This document shows, in pieces, positions 33,953 through 51,810 of a DNA stretch of 64,000 bases; position 1 is the first letter of the stretch; each line of letters begins with the position of its first letter. The stretch lies in the NCBI GenBank assembly GCA_964106645.2, contig OZ067039.1; one strand, 5' to 3'. A program made the position numbers and the translations under genes. The notes beneath the pieces were generated by a model. That model worked only from the letters and a program-made list of their open reading frames with translations. It made no database searches and was not told where the DNA came from. The stretch comes from Podarcis pityusensis (lineage: Eukaryota).

Positions 33953-34115
33953 AATTATCAATTTTGCTTTAACTCAGAAAGATGGTGGCAACCAACTTAG
34001 CTAACACATGTAAGAGAAGTAGCTGCAATATTTTATTCTGTAAATTTTATAAGTGATGCAAAGAGGAGCAGGCAGCAAAGGAAATTGACCTTCCAGCTCT
34101 TAACAATGATAATAT

Positions 34116-34591
34116 TGTTGGAATTCTGCCTGGGTCAGAGGAATGTGCCACAACGTAGGCACCGGCAGATATTCCTGTCGACCTCCCCGCGTCTCCCAAC
34201 CTCTGCTGATAAGCAGGCGAGGTCCGGCGATTCTTCTCAGATGTATGAGAGGAACACACCGTTCTTCCTCTCTCCCCTTTGGTGTCCCCAGGGAGGGGAA
34301 AGAAGCAGACAGAAAACTATTTACATCATTTATTTCTGCCTCTTACATCAGTACAGAGAATCATGTCTGCACTCAACAACAGCAAGAAGAAAACTCCTCC
34401 CAAGTACATCCAGTACGGGTCATATGACACACACACACACTGAGCTAACATCCGGTGCTCAGTACAGAATGGACTGCCCCTTTGTTCCCATGGCAACAGT
34501 CACAAACATCCTGTCTGGCTTTCCAGCCACAAGCAGCTGGCTGAGCTGCTGGAGCCTTTGCTTGCTGCAGCATTGGTGCTTTATGGTAACA
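34116..34591 (-). repeat. 3' LTR
   Basis: Preceded on the element strand by the purine tract TAGGGGGAGTA (34592-34602). Confidence 0.95.
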
Positions 34592-37108
34592 TACTCCCCC
34601 TAAAGTATCAATGTGTGCTGCGAGCAAAGCGTCATCCAGAGAAGAAAACAAACAGTTGTTATATTTATAACATTCCCCTGTTGTTTCAGTTCCACCCTTG
34701 GAACTACCCGCCACTGGTTTAACCAATGTACCTCTCTGGTTGTGTGACTTCGCATTACCTTGGTTAACAACTCTCTGTTGTGCCTTTGTCTCTGACTCAG
34801 ACACAGCTTCAATCTGTCCTTGGTCGTTTACAATAGCAACATATGCAAGGTTAGCAAACTCCTTTGAATACCTCTTGGGTGGTACACCCTTCGTTGCTCT
34901 CTCAGACCTACGTAAAAGTTGCTGCTCTTCTTTGCTTTCTGGTTCAGCCTCTGAACTCTCTGGAGAACCAGTACTAAGCTTAATCAATGGTTCATCCTTC
35001 ATCTGTGAAGGTCTATCCATTGTGTGAGATTTTCTCTCAATGACTGTGACAACTGAGCTGTCTGAGCTATCGCTGTCATCATCAGTACTACTGAACTCAA
35101 TAAGATCAAACTCATCATCATCATTATCATCAGAATCGTTTCCTGTGGGAAATGTCTGTACTATCCGCTCTTGCTTTGGAGCACTCTCTAGGAACTTTGT
35201 GAGAATCACCTGACCAGATTCAGACAAAATTACTCTGTAGAGACCCTTTTCATATCCCACAAAAATGCCTCTGGCATTCTTTACTCCACCTGGAGCTTCT
35301 GTTCTCACATGAGACCCGAAAACCTTAAAATAGGCAACAGAAGGTTTTCTATTGAACAGCTTCTCAAAAGGAGAACATCCCAACTCTGTTGAGACTTTTC
35401 TCAACCACACATGAAGATAGGACGCTAGCGATTCGGCCCAATATTCATGTGGCAAATGTGAACTCAGCAATTGCGCATGCATCCCCTTTTGCAATTCTTT
35501 GTTCACTTTTACACAGACTCCTCTGTTCCACGCTTCTTGTGAAACTGCCACTTTGTGGTCTATCCCTTTTCCATCCAGGAACTTCTGAAACTTCTGTAAC
35601 AGAAAAATTTGCTTCTCATCTGTGAAAAGACAATCAATGTTAGCATCATGCATACTTTTAACCTTGTCACAAAACTCCTGAAACTTTTCTAAAGTTTCTT
35701 GCGGTTTCTCCATCATATAAACCCAAGAATAATTAGTGAAACAATCCACACACAAAAGGTAAAATCGTGCACCGCCTCTAGATGGTTCTAGAGGACCAAT
35801 CACATCAGCATACACCCGCTGAAATGCTCTGTCGACCTTCTTGGTGTTAGTCACCTTCCTGGTGCTCACACTGGTCACACCTGCAAGAGAGATTTCGTTA
35901 GAAACAGAAGAATTACATTTCATGTAATCACTTTGATCAAAAGTCAACAAATACAGTCCATCTTTCTCTTTGGCAGTAAGAAACAGTTCTCCATCTTTGT
36001 AGATCTTGCAGCTTTTAGCATCATAGGACAGTTTCAGTCCTTTCTTTGCAATCTGCGACACGCTCAGCAGATTAAATCTCAGTTCTGGAACCAGGTAAAC
36101 ATCGCTTATAGTCAAGTTCAGACTCTCAAGATACACAGTCCCAATTCCAGTCGCTTCCAACTCCTGACCGTTGGCCTGTTTCACAGTGAAGCTTTGCTTC
36201 TTCAACGTCGAAAACAGTCCTCTGTGCGGGCACAAATGTTTTGTACAGCCCGTGTCGATTATGAACGAGTTCCCAACATCTGGCGTGGCTCCTTTCGCCA
36301 TCATAGCCTTTGCAGGTTTCACCTGGCACTTGGTACGGCTTTTGCCTGACGCCTGAGGCTTCGTAGAGCTGCTCTTTGCTCCTCTTGACTGGCGCGGCTT
36401 CTTACAGTTTCGCTGTAGATGCCCAGTCTGTCCACAATTGTAGCATCGGACAGCACTCAATGCTACACCATGCTCTCCAGTAGCATCAGCAGTGGGGGAA
36501 TTAGAACTCTGTTCTTCCCTCCCCCTTTCTTTTTCTTCCAGTGCAGCAAGTCTGTCGTGTTCATTCAGGACCACAGCACAAACTCTCTCCGCGGTCAGCT
36601 GCGCGGCCGGTAGGGAACCAAGCTGACTGGCAACAACCTTGTAGGTGCGGCTAAGGCTGTTTATCATCATGAAGCAAAACACTTCCTCCTGAAGACGGAA
36701 ATTGCGTTCCACCATCTGTTGACGCAGAAACTTCATTTCTGTCAGGTGTGCTTGAACATCTCCATCAGGCGCAAGTCTCAGATTGGTCAATTTCTCAAAA
36801 TACAGCAACGCTGAAGAACCAGCATCTCTCTGATGCGTTGTACGCAGCGTGTCCCATACCTCTTTCGCATTTTCTAAATGCTGAACATGCACCAACTGAT
36901 CATCTGAGACACACAGAATCATAGCAGTCCTGGCCCTTACATTTCGTGATTCCCAACCTCTGGTTGGTGCTGCAGGGATGGGGTTTTCAATTACATCAAA
37001 AAGCCTCTGATTCTGCAGCAGGGCCTTCATCTTTACAGACCAAGATGAATAATTGTCATTGGTTAAGGGAAGTGGGCAAGGCAAAACTCCCCCTTTCTTG
37101 GCATCCAT
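34445..37108 (-). CDS. 887-aa Copia Gag-protease-degenerate integrase polyprotein
   Basis: Copia Gag N-terminus (LTNDNYSSWSVKMKALL), CCHC knuckle CYNCGQTGHLQRNC (36404-36445), protease IIDTGCTKH (DTG at 36248-36256), rve-like core VYADVIGP...FTD...YWAE...SPFE...FKVFGS, GIFVGY motif, LRRSERATKGVPPKRY linker. Confidence 0.9.
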   Translation of the reverse strand: MDAKKGGVLPCPLPLTNDNYSSWSVKMKALLQNQRLFDVIENPIPAAPTRGWESRNVRARTAMILCVSDDQLVHVQHLENAKEVWDTLRTTHQRDAGSSALLYFEKLTNLRLAPDGDVQAHLTEMKFLRQQMVERNFRLQEEVFCFMMINSLSRTYKVVASQLGSLPAAQLTAERVCAVVLNEHDRLAALEEKERGREEQSSNSPTADATGEHGVALSAVRCYNCGQTGHLQRNCKKPRQSRGAKSSSTKPQASGKSRTKCQVKPAKAMMAKGATPDVGNSFIIDTGCTKHLCPHRGLFSTLKKQSFTVKQANGQELEATGIGTVYLESLNLTISDVYLVPELRFNLLSVSQIAKKGLKLSYDAKSCKIYKDGELFLTAKEKDGLYLLTFDQSDYMKCNSSVSNEISLAGVTSVSTRKVTNTKKVDRAFQRVYADVIGPLEPSRGGARFYLLCVDCFTNYSWVYMMEKPQETLEKFQEFCDKVKSMHDANIDCLFTDEKQIFLLQKFQKFLDGKGIDHKVAVSQEAWNRGVCVKVNKELQKGMHAQLLSSHLPHEYWAESLASYLHVWLRKVSTELGCSPFEKLFNRKPSVAYFKVFGSHVRTEAPGGVKNARGIFVGYEKGLYRVILSESGQVILTKFLESAPKQERIVQTFPTGNDSDDNDDDEFDLIEFSSTDDDSDSSDSSVVTVIERKSHTMDRPSQMKDEPLIKLSTGSPESSEAEPESKEEQQLLRRSERATKGVPPKRYSKEFANLAYVAIVNDQGQIEAVSESETKAQQRVVNQGNAKSHNQRGTLVKPVAGSSKGGTETTGECYKYNNCLFSSLDDALLAAHIDTLGGVCYHKAPMLQQAKAPAAQPAACGWKARQDVCDCCHGNKGAVHSVLSTGC

Positions 37109-37701
37109 CTTGAAGCCAAGCCTCTCTCACCTCCAAACAAGCTGCAAAATCCAACAGCTGTTTTTTCCTTTCTCACGCAGCAAACTGCAAATTGTTTACG
37201 CTCTTTGCACCTGGCAGCTAAACTCAGGCTGCTATTGAAAAGTCCCTTTCAAGAGCTCGTAAACCTTGTAGCCAAAACATTCTCTGGTTTTGTTTCGCTT
37301 TCCCAGGCTTACACGCAGAGTCCAGCCCCTTTGCCAGTAATTTTCCAGGACCGTTACCTAGCAACAATGCATTTCAGTAGGACATCTTATCTACCACAAA
37401 AATTTGTGGAATTTCAGGCTTCAGCCTTCAAGCTGCAGGCCTCTTCCTCCGGAGCTTTTGTTTTCTTTGAAACGCAGCTCCGTGAACCAGGGAATTAATC
37501 TTCCTGCGTTCACACTTTTAGCCCGAAATGCAGCATACCTTGAACTCCGTTGCTCTGGAAAACACCTCTTCTTTCCACCAGCTGTCTGTGGAGCCTCTGG
37601 CTACTTTCAGACGCTTGCCTTCCTCCTTGGAGCAGAGGAGGACAATCCATCAGCCTCTCATGCAGATGTCCGATGAATCACAACCATCCGAAGGCTGCCA
37701 C

Positions 37702-38177
37702 TGTTGGAATTCTGCCTGGGTCAGAGGAATGTGCCACAACGTAGGCACCGGCAGATATTCCTGTCGACCTCCCCGCGTCTCCCAACCTCTGCTGATAAGC
37801 AGGCGAGGTCCGGCGATTCTTCTCAGATGTATGAGAGGAACACACCGTTCTTCCTCTCTCCCCTTTGGTGTCCCCAGGGAGGGGAAAGAAGCAGACAGAA
37901 AACTATTTACATCATTTATTTCTGCCTCTTACATCAGTACAGAGAATCATGTCTGCACTCAACAACAGCAAGAAGAAAACTCCTCCCAAGTACATCCAGT
38001 ACGGGTCATATGACACACACACACACTGAGCTAACATCCGGTGCTCAGTACAGAATGGACTGCCCCTTTGTTCCCATGGCAACAGTCACAAACATCCTGT
38101 CTGGCTTTCCAGCCACAAGCAGCTGGCTGAGCTGCTGGAGCCTTTGCTTGCTGCAGCATTGGTGCTTTATGGTAACA
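37702..38177 (-). repeat. 5' LTR
   Basis: No difference from 34116-34591 seen by eye. Contains AATAAA on the minus strand. Confidence 0.95.
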
Positions 38178-40508
38178 AATATACCTGCCATAGAATTCTA
38201 GCCCATGCTGAACTGTTTTTCTAACTGAAGCCACTCAAACACTTTGGAGCCTACTGTAATTACAGCAGTGGGCATGTTCTTGGTTGGGCAAACCAGGAAC
38301 ACAAAAACCCTGCTACAAATGAGAAACAAAATTATTCCGAAATATTTCCACCTTTGTGCATAGTAACAGAGGAGAAGGAGTATCTTATGGGTGCAGAGTT
38401 TGTAAAATATGGTTCAACACAGGGAGTCTAAATCCTATTATTCACATTAGCCAAGGAGCAATCTTGTTTCTACTTTTCATTTACTTTTCCTATTAAGGCA
38501 AGGGTTGTCAGACTTGGACATCTCTCACAGCACTTTCTTATGGCTATAACTTGTTTCTTTCACAGTACTTACAAGGCTGTCATGGTTGAAAGTATGTGCT
38601 TTAATTTCTTCCAGTATTGATTCATTCTATGAGCAGAGTAAGGGATTTTCAGTAAATTGCTTAATAACAATGAAGTGCAAAATGCTGATCTCTTTCTTCC
38701 ATGTCTGTTTTTCATAGCCCCTGTTTCCTTGCAGAAAACATTCATGCCCCAGGAAATTTAAGAAAAATTGTGTTCCTTTAAAAACACCACCACAAAAACT
38801 GCTTTCTTTGTTTTAAAAATGCAGCATAACTGATTGAAACCAAATAGTGTGTTGTTTCTATCTAGAGTTATTATGGATTCTGGCACATTATAAGAATGTG
38901 TCATTCATCTTCAAGAGCAGTGCTCAACAATACCCAATCTCAGGTACTCACTTGGTAGAAAATATAAGAAGGGTGTTGAATTATTCTTCCTGGAGAAAAC
39001 AGTTCATAATAATCGCTTTCTGGGTTCCTCCTGACTTTGAATGCTACCTAATTGAGAAAATGAAGTGAATTAATTAATACATGCAGGGACCCAGGTGAGC
39101 TCCTTAGTCAGAGAAATTGACTGAGGAAATTTTAATCAATTTTTGACTGTCTGTGAAAAATACAAATTAAAAGAATGCCAAGGTGATTTCACTGGGACAG
39201 CCGCTAATCTGAGCAAAAGATTTGTACAAACTGGTAATCTGGGAGTTTTATGTAGCTAGCTTCCTCAACACTCCTGACCCCTAAGTACTTGGTTGGCACT
39301 ATCAGTTGAGGGCCTGAAGTTGGGCCTGAAGACCATAAGCAAAACAAGGGAAGGGACCTAATAATTAGCAAAAGACCCACCCCCTCAGCCCTCTGTTTCG
39401 TTCCTTAATCACTGCATGCAGTGGCTGATAACACACCACGCCAAAGGTGGGAATTCCTTCAGCATGCAAATCTGTTCTTTTGGCTCCCAAGACTCTTACA
39501 GATCTTGCGGAATGTTAAACTATCACAATTAATATGGAGAGAGGCAACTAATGCTGATTCTACTCAGCCCTGATCCTCATAGTTTAAGTTCAATCATCCG
39601 GTTCCATGGGAGCTTGAGGCTCACAGGGGAAGCAGGTGATGTCCTGAGAAGGTCAGTTCAAAGTAAAGGACAGAACCTAGGACTGGGTCTTACTGGCTAG
39701 AGCATTCTCCTTCTGGACAATGGCGATGTTCTGAAATCCCCATGTCCCCATCAGATCTACTGCATGTTGTGCCAGGAAATTCTAATGTATCATTATGTCC
39801 TCCCTCAAGGTGATCGGCTATTGGCAGAAGGGATGTGAAACCACCACTGCAGTGTGGGAGCTTTGCTGCCTTAAGAGTCCCAAAGTGCTTTATGCTTACT
39901 GTTTCCAAGGTAGACTTCAGACTCTCCCATAGCACACCAGTTTGTGCCACTGCACAGTTTGGGGACTTATTGTTCCCATTTGCTCTCCTTTCTGTCATAG
40001 GCTTCCCACGTTAAGATTTGGTGAGTTACTAAAAAATGCCTTTTAGTAAAGACCCAAGATGACAGTTGTTTGGAAGAGCAGACGTGTTCTCTTCCTCACC
40101 TTAGGAACAAAACCTTTAGGAAGAATTCCTTAGATGGGAAATTATGCTTCTGTGATCTCTGAGTATCAAATGAACCAAGGATCCCTAGTGCTCTCTATGC
40201 GCACCTCATTCGTAAGCACATAACATATATAGTTGTATTTACAGCAGCATAGTTGCTGTTGATCAGACATCTTAAAGAATGAATTTGTAGCTGATTGTCT
40301 GCAACTTTGGTCACATGTCACTGTTTAATATTAGAGAGTGAGAGTGTGGTTTTCCTTTCCACGCGAATGGGGGAAAAGTTCAGTGGATGTGGTCACAGTC
40401 CTTATGTGCCCTCATGTTCCTTCAGCCAGTAAATGTCAGTTTAAAGGATTTAATGCCTAGTGTTGCAGAATTATCCTTTTTTTAAAGGGGGGTATAGTAG
40501 ATTAGAAG

Positions 40509-50304: not shown

Positions 50305-51810
50305 AGAATCATAGAATCATAGAGTTGGAAGAGACCACAAGGGCCATCGAGTCCAACCCCCTGCCAAGCAGGAAACACCATCAGAGCACTCCGGACATAT
50401 GGTTGTCAAGCTTCTGCTTAAAGACCTCCAAAGAAGGAGACTCCACCACACTCACTCCTTGGCAGCAAATTCCACTGTCGAACAGCTCTTACTGTCAGGA
50501 AGTTCTTCTAATGTTTAGGGGGAATCTTCTTTCTTGTAGTTTGGATCCATTGCTCTGTGTCCGCTTCTCTGGAGCAGCAGAAAACAACCTTTCTCCCTCC
50601 TCTATGTGACATCCTTTTATATATTTGAACATGGCTATCATATCACCCCTTAACCTCCTCTTCTCCAGGCTAAACATGCACAGCTCCCTTTGCCGTTCCT
50701 CATAAGGCATCGTTTCCAGGCCTTTGACCATTTTGGTTGCCCTCCTCTGGACATGTTCCAGTTTGTCAGTGTCCTTCTTGAACTGTGGTGCCCAGAACTG
50801 GACACAGTACTCCAGGTGAGGTCTGACCAGAGCAGAATACAGTGGCACTATATCTTCCCTTGATCTAGATGCTATACTCCTATTGATGCAGCCCAGAATT
50901 GCATTGGCTTTTTTAGCTGCCGCGTCACACTGTTGGCTCATGTCAAGTTTGTGGTCAACCAAGACTCCTAGATCCTTTTCACATGTACTGCTCTCAAGCC
51001 AGGTGTCACCCATCTTGTATTTGTGCCTCTCATTTTTTTTTGCCCAAGTGCAATACTTTACATTTCTCCCTGTTAAAATTCATCTTGTTTGTTTTGGCCC
51101 AGTTCTCTAATCTGTCAAGGTCGTTTTGAAGTGTGATCCTGTCCTCTGGGGTGTTAGCCACCCCTCCCAGTTTGGTGTCATCTGCAAATTTGATCAGGAT
51201 GCCCTTGAGTCCATCATCCAAGTCGTTGATAAAGATGTTGAATAAGACCGGGCCCAAGACAGAACCCTGTGGCACCCCACTAGTCACTCTTCTCCAGGAT
51301 GAAGAGGAACCATTGATGAGCACCCTTTGGGTTTGATCAGTCAGCCAGTTACAAATCCACTGAGTGGTAGCATAGTCAAGACCGCATTTTACCAGCTTCT
51401 TTACAAGAATATCATGGGGCACCTTGTCAAATGCCTTGCTGAAATCAAGGTAGGCTACATCCACTGCGTTCCCTTCATCTACCAGGCTTGTAATTCTGTC
51501 AAAAAACGAGATCAGGTTAGTCTGACATGACTTATTTTTCAGAAATCCATGCTGACTATTGGTGATCACAGCATTCCTTTCTAGGATCTGCTCCAGAATC
51601 TTCCCTGGTATTGATGTCAGACTGACTGGGCGGTAATTATTTGGGTCCTCTCTTTCCCCCTTTTTGAAAATAGGGGCAACATTTGCCCTCCTTCAGTCTG
51701 CCGGGACTTCTCCTGTTCTCGAGGAATTCTCAAAGATGACTGCCAGTGGTTCTGAGATCACATCTGCCAGTTCTTTTAATACTCTTGGATGCAGTTCATC
51801 TGGCCCTGGA
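50305..51810 (-). mobile_element. CR1 LINE, 5'-truncated (RT C-terminal half plus 3' UTR)
   Basis: [31 protein letters not shown] motifs, frameshift at an A-run near 51035, (ATTCTATG)n tail. Confidence 0.95.

Follow-up and report, generated by a model that had tools for sequence, protein, structure and literature searches.

A probable pseudo-integrase kept under purifying selection in a young Ty1/copia retrotransposon of Podarcis pityusensis that is devoid of reverse transcriptase

Among the non-autonomous LTR retrotransposons to be compared with the element described here, the ETn elements of the mouse are non-coding. The nearest known families are those of plants which encode Gag and protease only, or which keep patchy remnants of pol (PMC13570524). 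Integration is not the sole job of the integrases of HIV, Ty1 and Ty3, and their other jobs are hard to part from catalysis; in the family described here, evolution appears to have parted them. In intasomes, the outer subunits attach by the core-core interface, their N-terminal domains being dispensable in vitro, and these outer subunits are implicated in nucleosome contacts (PMC9728412). With respect to the primer-binding site (PBS), a trade-off of priming against silencing, with escape from silencing by tRNA fragments, has been proposed for mouse endogenous retroviruses (ERVs), and Ty1 and Ty3 are said to inherit their PBS strictly (PMC7472051).

The window, i.e., the whole stretch of 64,000 nucleotides of Podarcis pityusensis analysed here (assembly GCA_964106645.2, contig OZ067039.1), contains a member of a family of elements hereafter called family A, the features of which are collected in Table 1. 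According to its copia-type Gag and protease, to an integrase located directly after the protease and to its placement in trees, all read from sequence, family A is a Ty1/copia element by descent, and it exhibits the structural marks of this group, namely LTRs with TG...CA ends, a PBS, a polypurine tract and a 5-bp target duplication. The open frame around its ORF spans positions 34445-37126 of the minus strand. The Pfam scores of the ORF are 5e-23 for PF14223, 3e-20 for PF22936 and 4e-4 for PF25597; no Pfam match to RVT_2 occurs in it, and the reverse transcriptase (RT) and RNase H which follow the integrase in autonomous copia elements are missing. Before its stop codon, the ORF runs for 49 codons inside the 3' LTR (34445-34591), where very few changes occur and pairwise pN/pS amounts to 0.20. 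Elsewhere in the window, a truncated LINE reverse-transcriptase fragment (RVT_1, E=7e-34), which we take from its motifs to be CR1-like, occupies positions 50495-51692.

Table 1. Features of the family A element, in window coordinates.
Feature	Position	Strand	Size, basis or rate
Whole element, non-autonomous Ty1/copia LTR retrotransposon ("family A")	34116..38177	-	4,062 bp
5' LTR, TGTT...AACA, identical to 3' LTR	37702..38177	-	476 bp
3' LTR	34116..34591	-	476 bp
Target-site duplication AATAT (+ strand), left copy	34111..34115	.	5 bp
Target-site duplication AATAT, right copy	38178..38182	.	
PBS, complementary with mismatches to the 3' 36 nt of tRNA-iMet	37663..37700	-	~38 nt
Polypurine tract GGGGGAGTA	34592..34600	-	
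Single ORF, entering the 3' LTR, without RT or RNase H	34445..37108	-	887 aa from first Met
Copia-type Gag (PF14223, PF13961)	36527..37108	-	Pfam; omega 0.26
CCHC zinc knuckle	36398..36448	-	Pfam, family copies
Aspartic protease, DTG intact	35927..36271	-	Pfam; omega 0.25; Asp in 36/36 copies
Short linker, ~50 aa including the HHCC domain missing, neutral evolution	35831..35926	-	omega 0.95
Integrase-like catalytic-core fold, D, D, V	35312..35830	-	sequence, predicted fold; omega 0.32
First Asp D441, codon GAT	35804..35806	-	translated frame, family copies
Second Asp D503, codon GAT	35618..35620	-	translated frame, family copies
Val539 (GTA) where the catalytic Glu is expected	35510..35512	-	translated frame, copies, alignment
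SH3-like C-terminal domain (PF25597)	35162..35311	-	Pfam; omega 0.25
Basic tail motif RRSER...PPKRY, conserved, common to active sisters	34868..34915	-	

The original prediction depicted an integrase that has kept its fold and lost both its third catalytic residue and its HHCC domain, and the letters agree with it. The codons of the D, D, V triad are as claimed, with Val following the second Asp at a distance of exactly 36 residues, and all the motifs quoted as retained or altered occur at their places in the translated frame. The altered active-site motifs align unambiguously with those of active sisters, WNRGVCVKVN corresponding to WQNGLCERVN and TDEKQIF to TDKGGEF. The absence of HHCC is confirmed by the spacing between protease and core, by pattern and by Pfam: 85-89 residues separate the NLLS motif of the protease from the first Asp in six of six disarmed representatives vs 134-143 residues in three of three active sisters, the H..H..C..C pattern is matched by the active sisters only among these six disarmed and three active proteins, and gag_pre-integrs finds no Pfam match in the family A ORF. 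The rve profile gives E=0.06 with this ORF (14 bits, for a cut-off of 32.6) vs E=4e-11 with the active sister P0031. Compared with an active integrase, the core fold and the SH3 domain are there in the predicted model, whereas D,D(35)E is absent from 66 of 66 copies and HHCC from all six representatives.

Half of the 32 positions conserved at 85% or more in 85 active integrases (16 of them) are kept in all six disarmed representatives. Another eight of the 32, invariant in the three active sisters, i.e., H439, K475, G505, E507, P532, N535, E539 and N575, are lost in each of the six, and five of these eight belong to the two active-site motifs, namely the motif that follows the second Asp and the loop plus helix bearing the Glu. 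In these sequences, the losses cluster in the active-site motifs and the scaffold residues stay, the kept residues being largely structural. Basic residues (K+R) number 29-33 in the disarmed proteins vs 27-29 in the active sisters, and 24 in a relative labelled Zootoca vivipara. The predicted model, based on an alignment made mostly of active integrases, consists of an integrase core and an SH3 domain (pLDDT 93), with the foamy virus integrase as its closest fold match (Z 20.8, rmsd 2.0, 158 aligned residues), and a search of the ESM Atlas returned generic integrase clusters only.

Family A is represented by many closely similar copies. The exact LTR-PBS junction of one young subfamily occurs 468 times; the integrase stretch gives 1,100 DNA candidates in the genome, the best 40 of which were scored at 98-100%, together with at least 150 protein matches at 97-100%. 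Among the 39 copies fetched, 36 have both LTRs in view, with 5-bp duplications in 27 and identical LTRs in 23 of these 36. Such 5-bp duplications and identical LTRs denote normal insertions, and therefore an active integrase acts on the copies; active integrase and RT have copied family A very recently. In a set of 36 close copies, chosen by DNA closeness with one irregular copy dropped and the window copy included, Asp, Asp and Val occur in 36 of 36 and the integrase core is free of stops and frameshifts in all of them, the 887-aa ORF being unbroken in 32 and broken in Gag in the other four. Since this set is biased by DNA closeness, 30 diverged loci (59-93% amino acid identity) were added, all with both Asp; their third residue is Val in 29 loci, Met in one and Glu in none. 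In older copies, as low as about 52% amino acid identity, Val is present wherever the site is covered, and Asn replaces one of the two Asp in a few single copies. The prediction was to be abandoned if other family copies carried Glu and HHCC; no Glu occurs in any copy examined and no HHCC in those checked. The D, D, V pattern is fixed across family A and is neither a chance nor a private mutation. The Glu-bearing matches in two loci (L205 and L226) belong to separate elements, on the opposite strand and with 23-34% identity. RT matches also occur next to some copies and, in the two loci checked, fall outside the 3' LTR. Contigs of four DNA runs from other organisms also hold family A and, as weak evidence, the first two positions of the Val codon are unchanged among the matches listed for these four runs.

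A search among cluster representatives revealed two relatives of the same length class, P0030 and P0031. The Zootoca vivipara protein P0030, for which the evidence consists of one gene-model protein, has G, N and V at the triad, both Asp being lost, and is devoid of HHCC. In trees of 22 proteins, family A and P0030 group together (bootstrap 100 for the integrase and 96 for Gag-protease), inside a wider clade which also comprises family B, P0182, family C and the P. muralis fragment P0183 (bootstrap 100 and 82). Because Val and the lack of HHCC occur in both family A and Zootoca, the disarming predates their split at about 41% amino acid identity. The closest labelled proteins come from Podarcis, in keeping with a lacertid lizard. 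Among public gene models, P0002, P0003 and P0030 bear the names vomeronasal receptor or FAM168A and contain the family A protein; they look like mis-annotations or chimeric models.

Family B (P0031; L128-L137) resembles family A in being RT-less, young and of the same clade; it measures about 4.3 kb, with an 845-aa Gag-protease-integrase ORF, and keeps a short piece of the RNase H end; at least 54 copies at 99-100% amino acid identity occur in the genome. It differs from family A by its intact HHCC and D, D, E, by a half-tRNA primer site and by LTR ends of the TGAGG...TGACA type. Its closest relative P0182 (67%) has RT, hence the loss of RT in family B is separate from that in family A, and the sequences are most simply accounted for by two losses of RT in the clade. 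The LTR ends of family B also differ from those of family C, which may be its reason for keeping an active integrase. Family C (L139-L149) is an autonomous copia family with ORFs of 1342-1356 aa, LTR pairs 99.4-100% identical and at least 34 matches scored. Families A and C belong to the same clade, are both young and have TGTT...AACA ends and the GGGGGAGGA tract alike; their LTRs and leaders show no similarity beyond the ends, and their primer sites differ. The clade, the youth, the LTR ends and the polypurine tract all point to family C as the best candidate helper. Its core is 38% identical to that of family A, so that a shared dimer face cannot be assumed, and a complex prediction combining the dead core with the family C integrase yielded a score of 0.00, which is evidence for neither side.

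Shared 11-mers between the non-coding DNA of family A and seven other families singled out no helper. Five further copia families (L100-L119), taken from 20 sampled of the 150 top RT matches, have long ORFs and, for several of them, near-identical LTRs; considered as close relatives of family A, they were rejected at 23-26% amino acid identity and no DNA similarity, and they are possible helpers. The genome contains 2,321 RT candidates, copia elements being abundant and recently active in this lizard. Contig C19 (38 Mb) displays a strong pile-up of old, nested copia copies, as would be expected of a non-recombining sex chromosome.

As confirmed with genomic tRNA-Met(CAT) genes, the 38-nt PBS of family A is complementary, with mismatches, to the 3' end of tRNA-iMet and does not pair with the anticodon region as half-tRNA sites do; families B and C and the five other copia families sampled all have the half-tRNA site GGTTATGG. 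The first 100 of the 468 junctions, sorted by eye, comprise 25 with the exact tRNA sequence, 4 hybrids and 71 mismatched sites, and the exact tRNA sequence in about a quarter of the young copies is direct evidence that tRNA-iMet primes. The mismatched PBS is dominant, and other subfamilies carry their own mismatches at the same place. By analogy, this dominance of a mismatched site resembles the escape from tRNA-fragment silencing proposed for mouse ERVs. In three junctions (L184, L185 and L186, around position 1500), the tRNA has been copied past the usual 18 nt, up to the anticodon, to a fold-back or almost to the tRNA 5' end; a primer consisting of only the 3' half of tRNA-iMet was rejected as a general rule, these junctions copying the tRNA farther. 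Candidates for a tRNA-like gene that would match the mismatched PBS turned out to be eight copies of an unrelated tandem repeat and one family copy; the repeat (L120, L122-L127) is dispersed, GC-rich and built of tandem units of about 60 bp with internal hairpins. No autonomous element with a 3'-end primer site was found among 20 of 82 sites, the RT matches at these sites coming from nested or flanking elements or from a LINE.

Expression of family A receives low-level support from three RNA runs of a related organism, which contain 235, 236 and 177 reads, respectively, for 11-13 million records read in each; these reads are distributed along the element, most of them being 90-99% alike. Provided that the libraries are stranded in the conventional way, the reads of the two bulk runs lean to the strand expected for sense RNA. 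Splice joints were not apparent at this low read depth, and a run search listed no RNA run as a holder of family A.

Codon models were applied to 30 ORFs, 25 of which come from the 30 diverged loci and five from close copies; five of 35 ORFs, with an open frame below 800 aa, were left out. These models give an omega of 0.316 for the integrase core (p=4e-22 vs 1), next to the values listed in Table 1 for Gag, protease and SH3 domain and to 0.50 for the tail. The scar left by the HHCC deletion serves as an internal control, its value of 0.95 being a rough estimate from 32 codons, and pairwise pN/pS in the 36 close copies is 0.19. Relative to Gag plus protease, the rate of the core is 0.77-1.27 in dead pairs vs 0.43-0.58 in active pairs, and the variability of sites in the dead core follows the conservation of active integrases weakly (rho 0.12, p=0.11). 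The constraint on the dead core is real but relaxed, at about half that of the active sister integrases. Since the core stands at 0.32 beside a scar at 0.95 and its losses are fixed, it is a selected pseudo-integrase rather than a decaying one: lost catalytic residues, a kept fold (as predicted) and purifying selection, marks of a pseudoenzyme, are all present. We consider it very probable that the domain is dead as a catalyst and that selection acts on it as a protein. The neutral decay of a relic persisting since the loss of RT, to which the faster change than in active integrases and the weak rve score could be ascribed, retains almost no probability: such decay was originally pictured as uniform changes with frequent stops, and is contradicted by the omega of the core beside its adjoining neutral linker, by the pN/pS of the close copies and by cores without stops in 36 of 36. 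A partly active enzyme, in which the two Asp bind one metal or Glu544 or another acidic residue replaces the missing Glu, is also quite improbable. Both Asp are kept in all 66 copies (36 close and 30 diverged), and in nearly all Podarcis-type copies, with which residual metal binding is compatible, and Glu544 is invariant in the six disarmed representatives and absent from the active sisters. However, the Zootoca relative keeps Glu544 without either Asp, a single triad mutation abolishes the activity of the Ty1 integrase (PMC8487063), and the loop residues G505, E507, P532 and N535 have been lost along with the HHCC domain. Moreover, Glu544 is located five residues along the helix and, from helix geometry, should face away.

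A non-catalytic role, as originally proposed, is well supported by the fixed losses, the omega and the scaffold. Of the three roles then named, i.e., docking of the helper's integrase or Pol, RNA binding and dominant-negative interference, the last is the least likely because family A depends on a helper and amplifies. Integrases multimerise, and a dead core still able to dimerise could in principle poison autonomous copia elements to the benefit of the host or of the element, but the copies are dispersed new insertions instead of one conserved host locus, they need an active integrase, and the autonomous sisters are young and numerous, all of which makes dominant-negative interference highly improbable. 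The best explanation, to which we give about as much credence as doubt, is that of a young, high-copy, RT-less element with a dead and selected integrase acting as a likely non-catalytic partner of a helper integrase; for the partner role itself, which is drawn by analogy, our confidence falls slightly short of even. Its main rival, unlikely as it seems to us, regards the dead integrase as an RNA- or tRNA-binding module of the particle, which holds the element RNA or the full-length tRNA-iMet outside the integration complex. Conservation among subfamilies is highest in the SH3 domain (94-96% to four of five, omega 0.25), the primer site of family A is unlike that of all the RT-bearing copia families sampled in the genome, lentiviral integrase binds RNA mainly via its C-terminal domains (PMC13102720), Ty3 integrase mutants package less primer tRNA (PMC5371799), and the handling of RNA or tRNA by integrase is also reported in PMC4974528. 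Against such a module, the K+R counts are close to those of the active sisters, and the Ty1 and Ty3 integrases, when apart from RT, fail to rescue reverse transcription (PMC5371799), family A being itself without RT; for the same reason, a direct stimulation of the helper RT is disfavoured. Rather improbably, finally, the core could have no partner-specific job and persist because the polyprotein must fold, be processed and assemble, a misfolded end harming Gag and protease, or because it carries the basic tail. The roughly twofold relaxed constraint, the largely structural nature of the kept residues and an RRSxR tail conserved in active and dead families alike are consistent with this, but a stop or a deletion after the protease would lift the burden, as in the plant families with Gag and protease only (PMC13570524), and the core has persisted over about 50% amino acid divergence, without stops in 36 of 36 close copies, even though the HHCC part has been deleted.

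The partnership with a helper integrase can be pictured as follows. Gag and protease of family A would build a particle favouring their own RNA, and this would account for the selection on the family A protein. If an element that depends on a helper is selected for its protein, the encoding RNA presumably gains from that protein, as it would by Gag-driven packaging. Both RT and the active integrase would come from the co-packaged Gag-Pol of a helper, for which family C is the best candidate. At the core-core dimer face, the dead core would pair with the integrase of the helper, and this pairing could draw scarce helper Pol into the particle. The dead core would also occupy those outer positions of the integration complex that are non-catalytic, and its SH3 domain and basic tail would there contact chromatin. 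More tentatively, and with doubts that outweigh our confidence, the parasitic element may have evolved a natural pseudo-integrase that combines a dedicated outer subunit with an adaptor for docking Pol, so that its particles need little helper enzyme, whereas the mismatched 3'-end primer site would avoid both the primer of the helper and tRNA-fragment silencing.

No earlier description of family A was found in the literature searched, Repbase and Dfam, which may list the family without remark on this feature, lying outside that scope, and the same literature yielded no prior description of a non-autonomous element whose integrase is catalytically dead and under selection. A disarmed, HHCC-less integrase is conserved here across about 50% protein divergence in a still-spreading element, and the active sisters present in this genome serve as controls. 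Great success of a non-autonomous LTR element is also seen to be compatible with keeping, instead of shedding, a pol domain, and annotation pipelines would call such copies broken. If the present reading is true, families A, B and C represent three living grades of dependence in one copia clade of one lizard genome, and the non-catalytic functions of integrase are separable.

Compared with the known systems, family A shares with Ty1 and Drosophila copia (Pseudoviridae) the Gag-protease-integrase order, the copia Pfam domains, the TG...CA LTRs, the 5-bp duplication and the tRNA-iMet primer, and differs from them by the lack of RT, RNase H, HHCC and catalytic Glu. It uses the 3' end of the tRNA, in contrast to the RT-bearing copia elements sampled in the genome, which use the half-tRNA site, and the inheritance of its PBS is not strict, unlike that stated for Ty1 and Ty3 (PMC7472051). 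An 887-aa ORF sets it apart from TRIM and LARD elements, defined by the lack of coding capacity, and a selected integrase-like core with its SH3 domain sets it apart from TR-GAG elements, defined by Gag with or without protease and no integrase domain. Like TR-GAG and other plant families, family A is non-autonomous, keeps Gag and protease and belongs to a type of element whose partner is often untraceable; these plant families have Gag and protease alone or patchy, partly decayed remnants of pol (PMC13570524), whereas family A exhibits, in a vertebrate, an unbroken and selected integrase-like domain that is fixed throughout its copies. The mouse ETn/MusD pair similarly combines a non-autonomous element with a helper, the commonest PBS being mismatched and some copies exact (PMC7472051), but ETn derives from an endogenous retrovirus whereas family A encodes an 887-aa protein. 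The outer subunits of the foamy virus intasome resemble the family A core in needing no N-terminal domain and performing no chemistry, and the domain deleted in family A is the one reported as dispensable in these subunits; they are the same gene product as the inner subunits, whereas the dead form of family A is the product of a separate gene, with a putative role of the same kind (PMC9728412).
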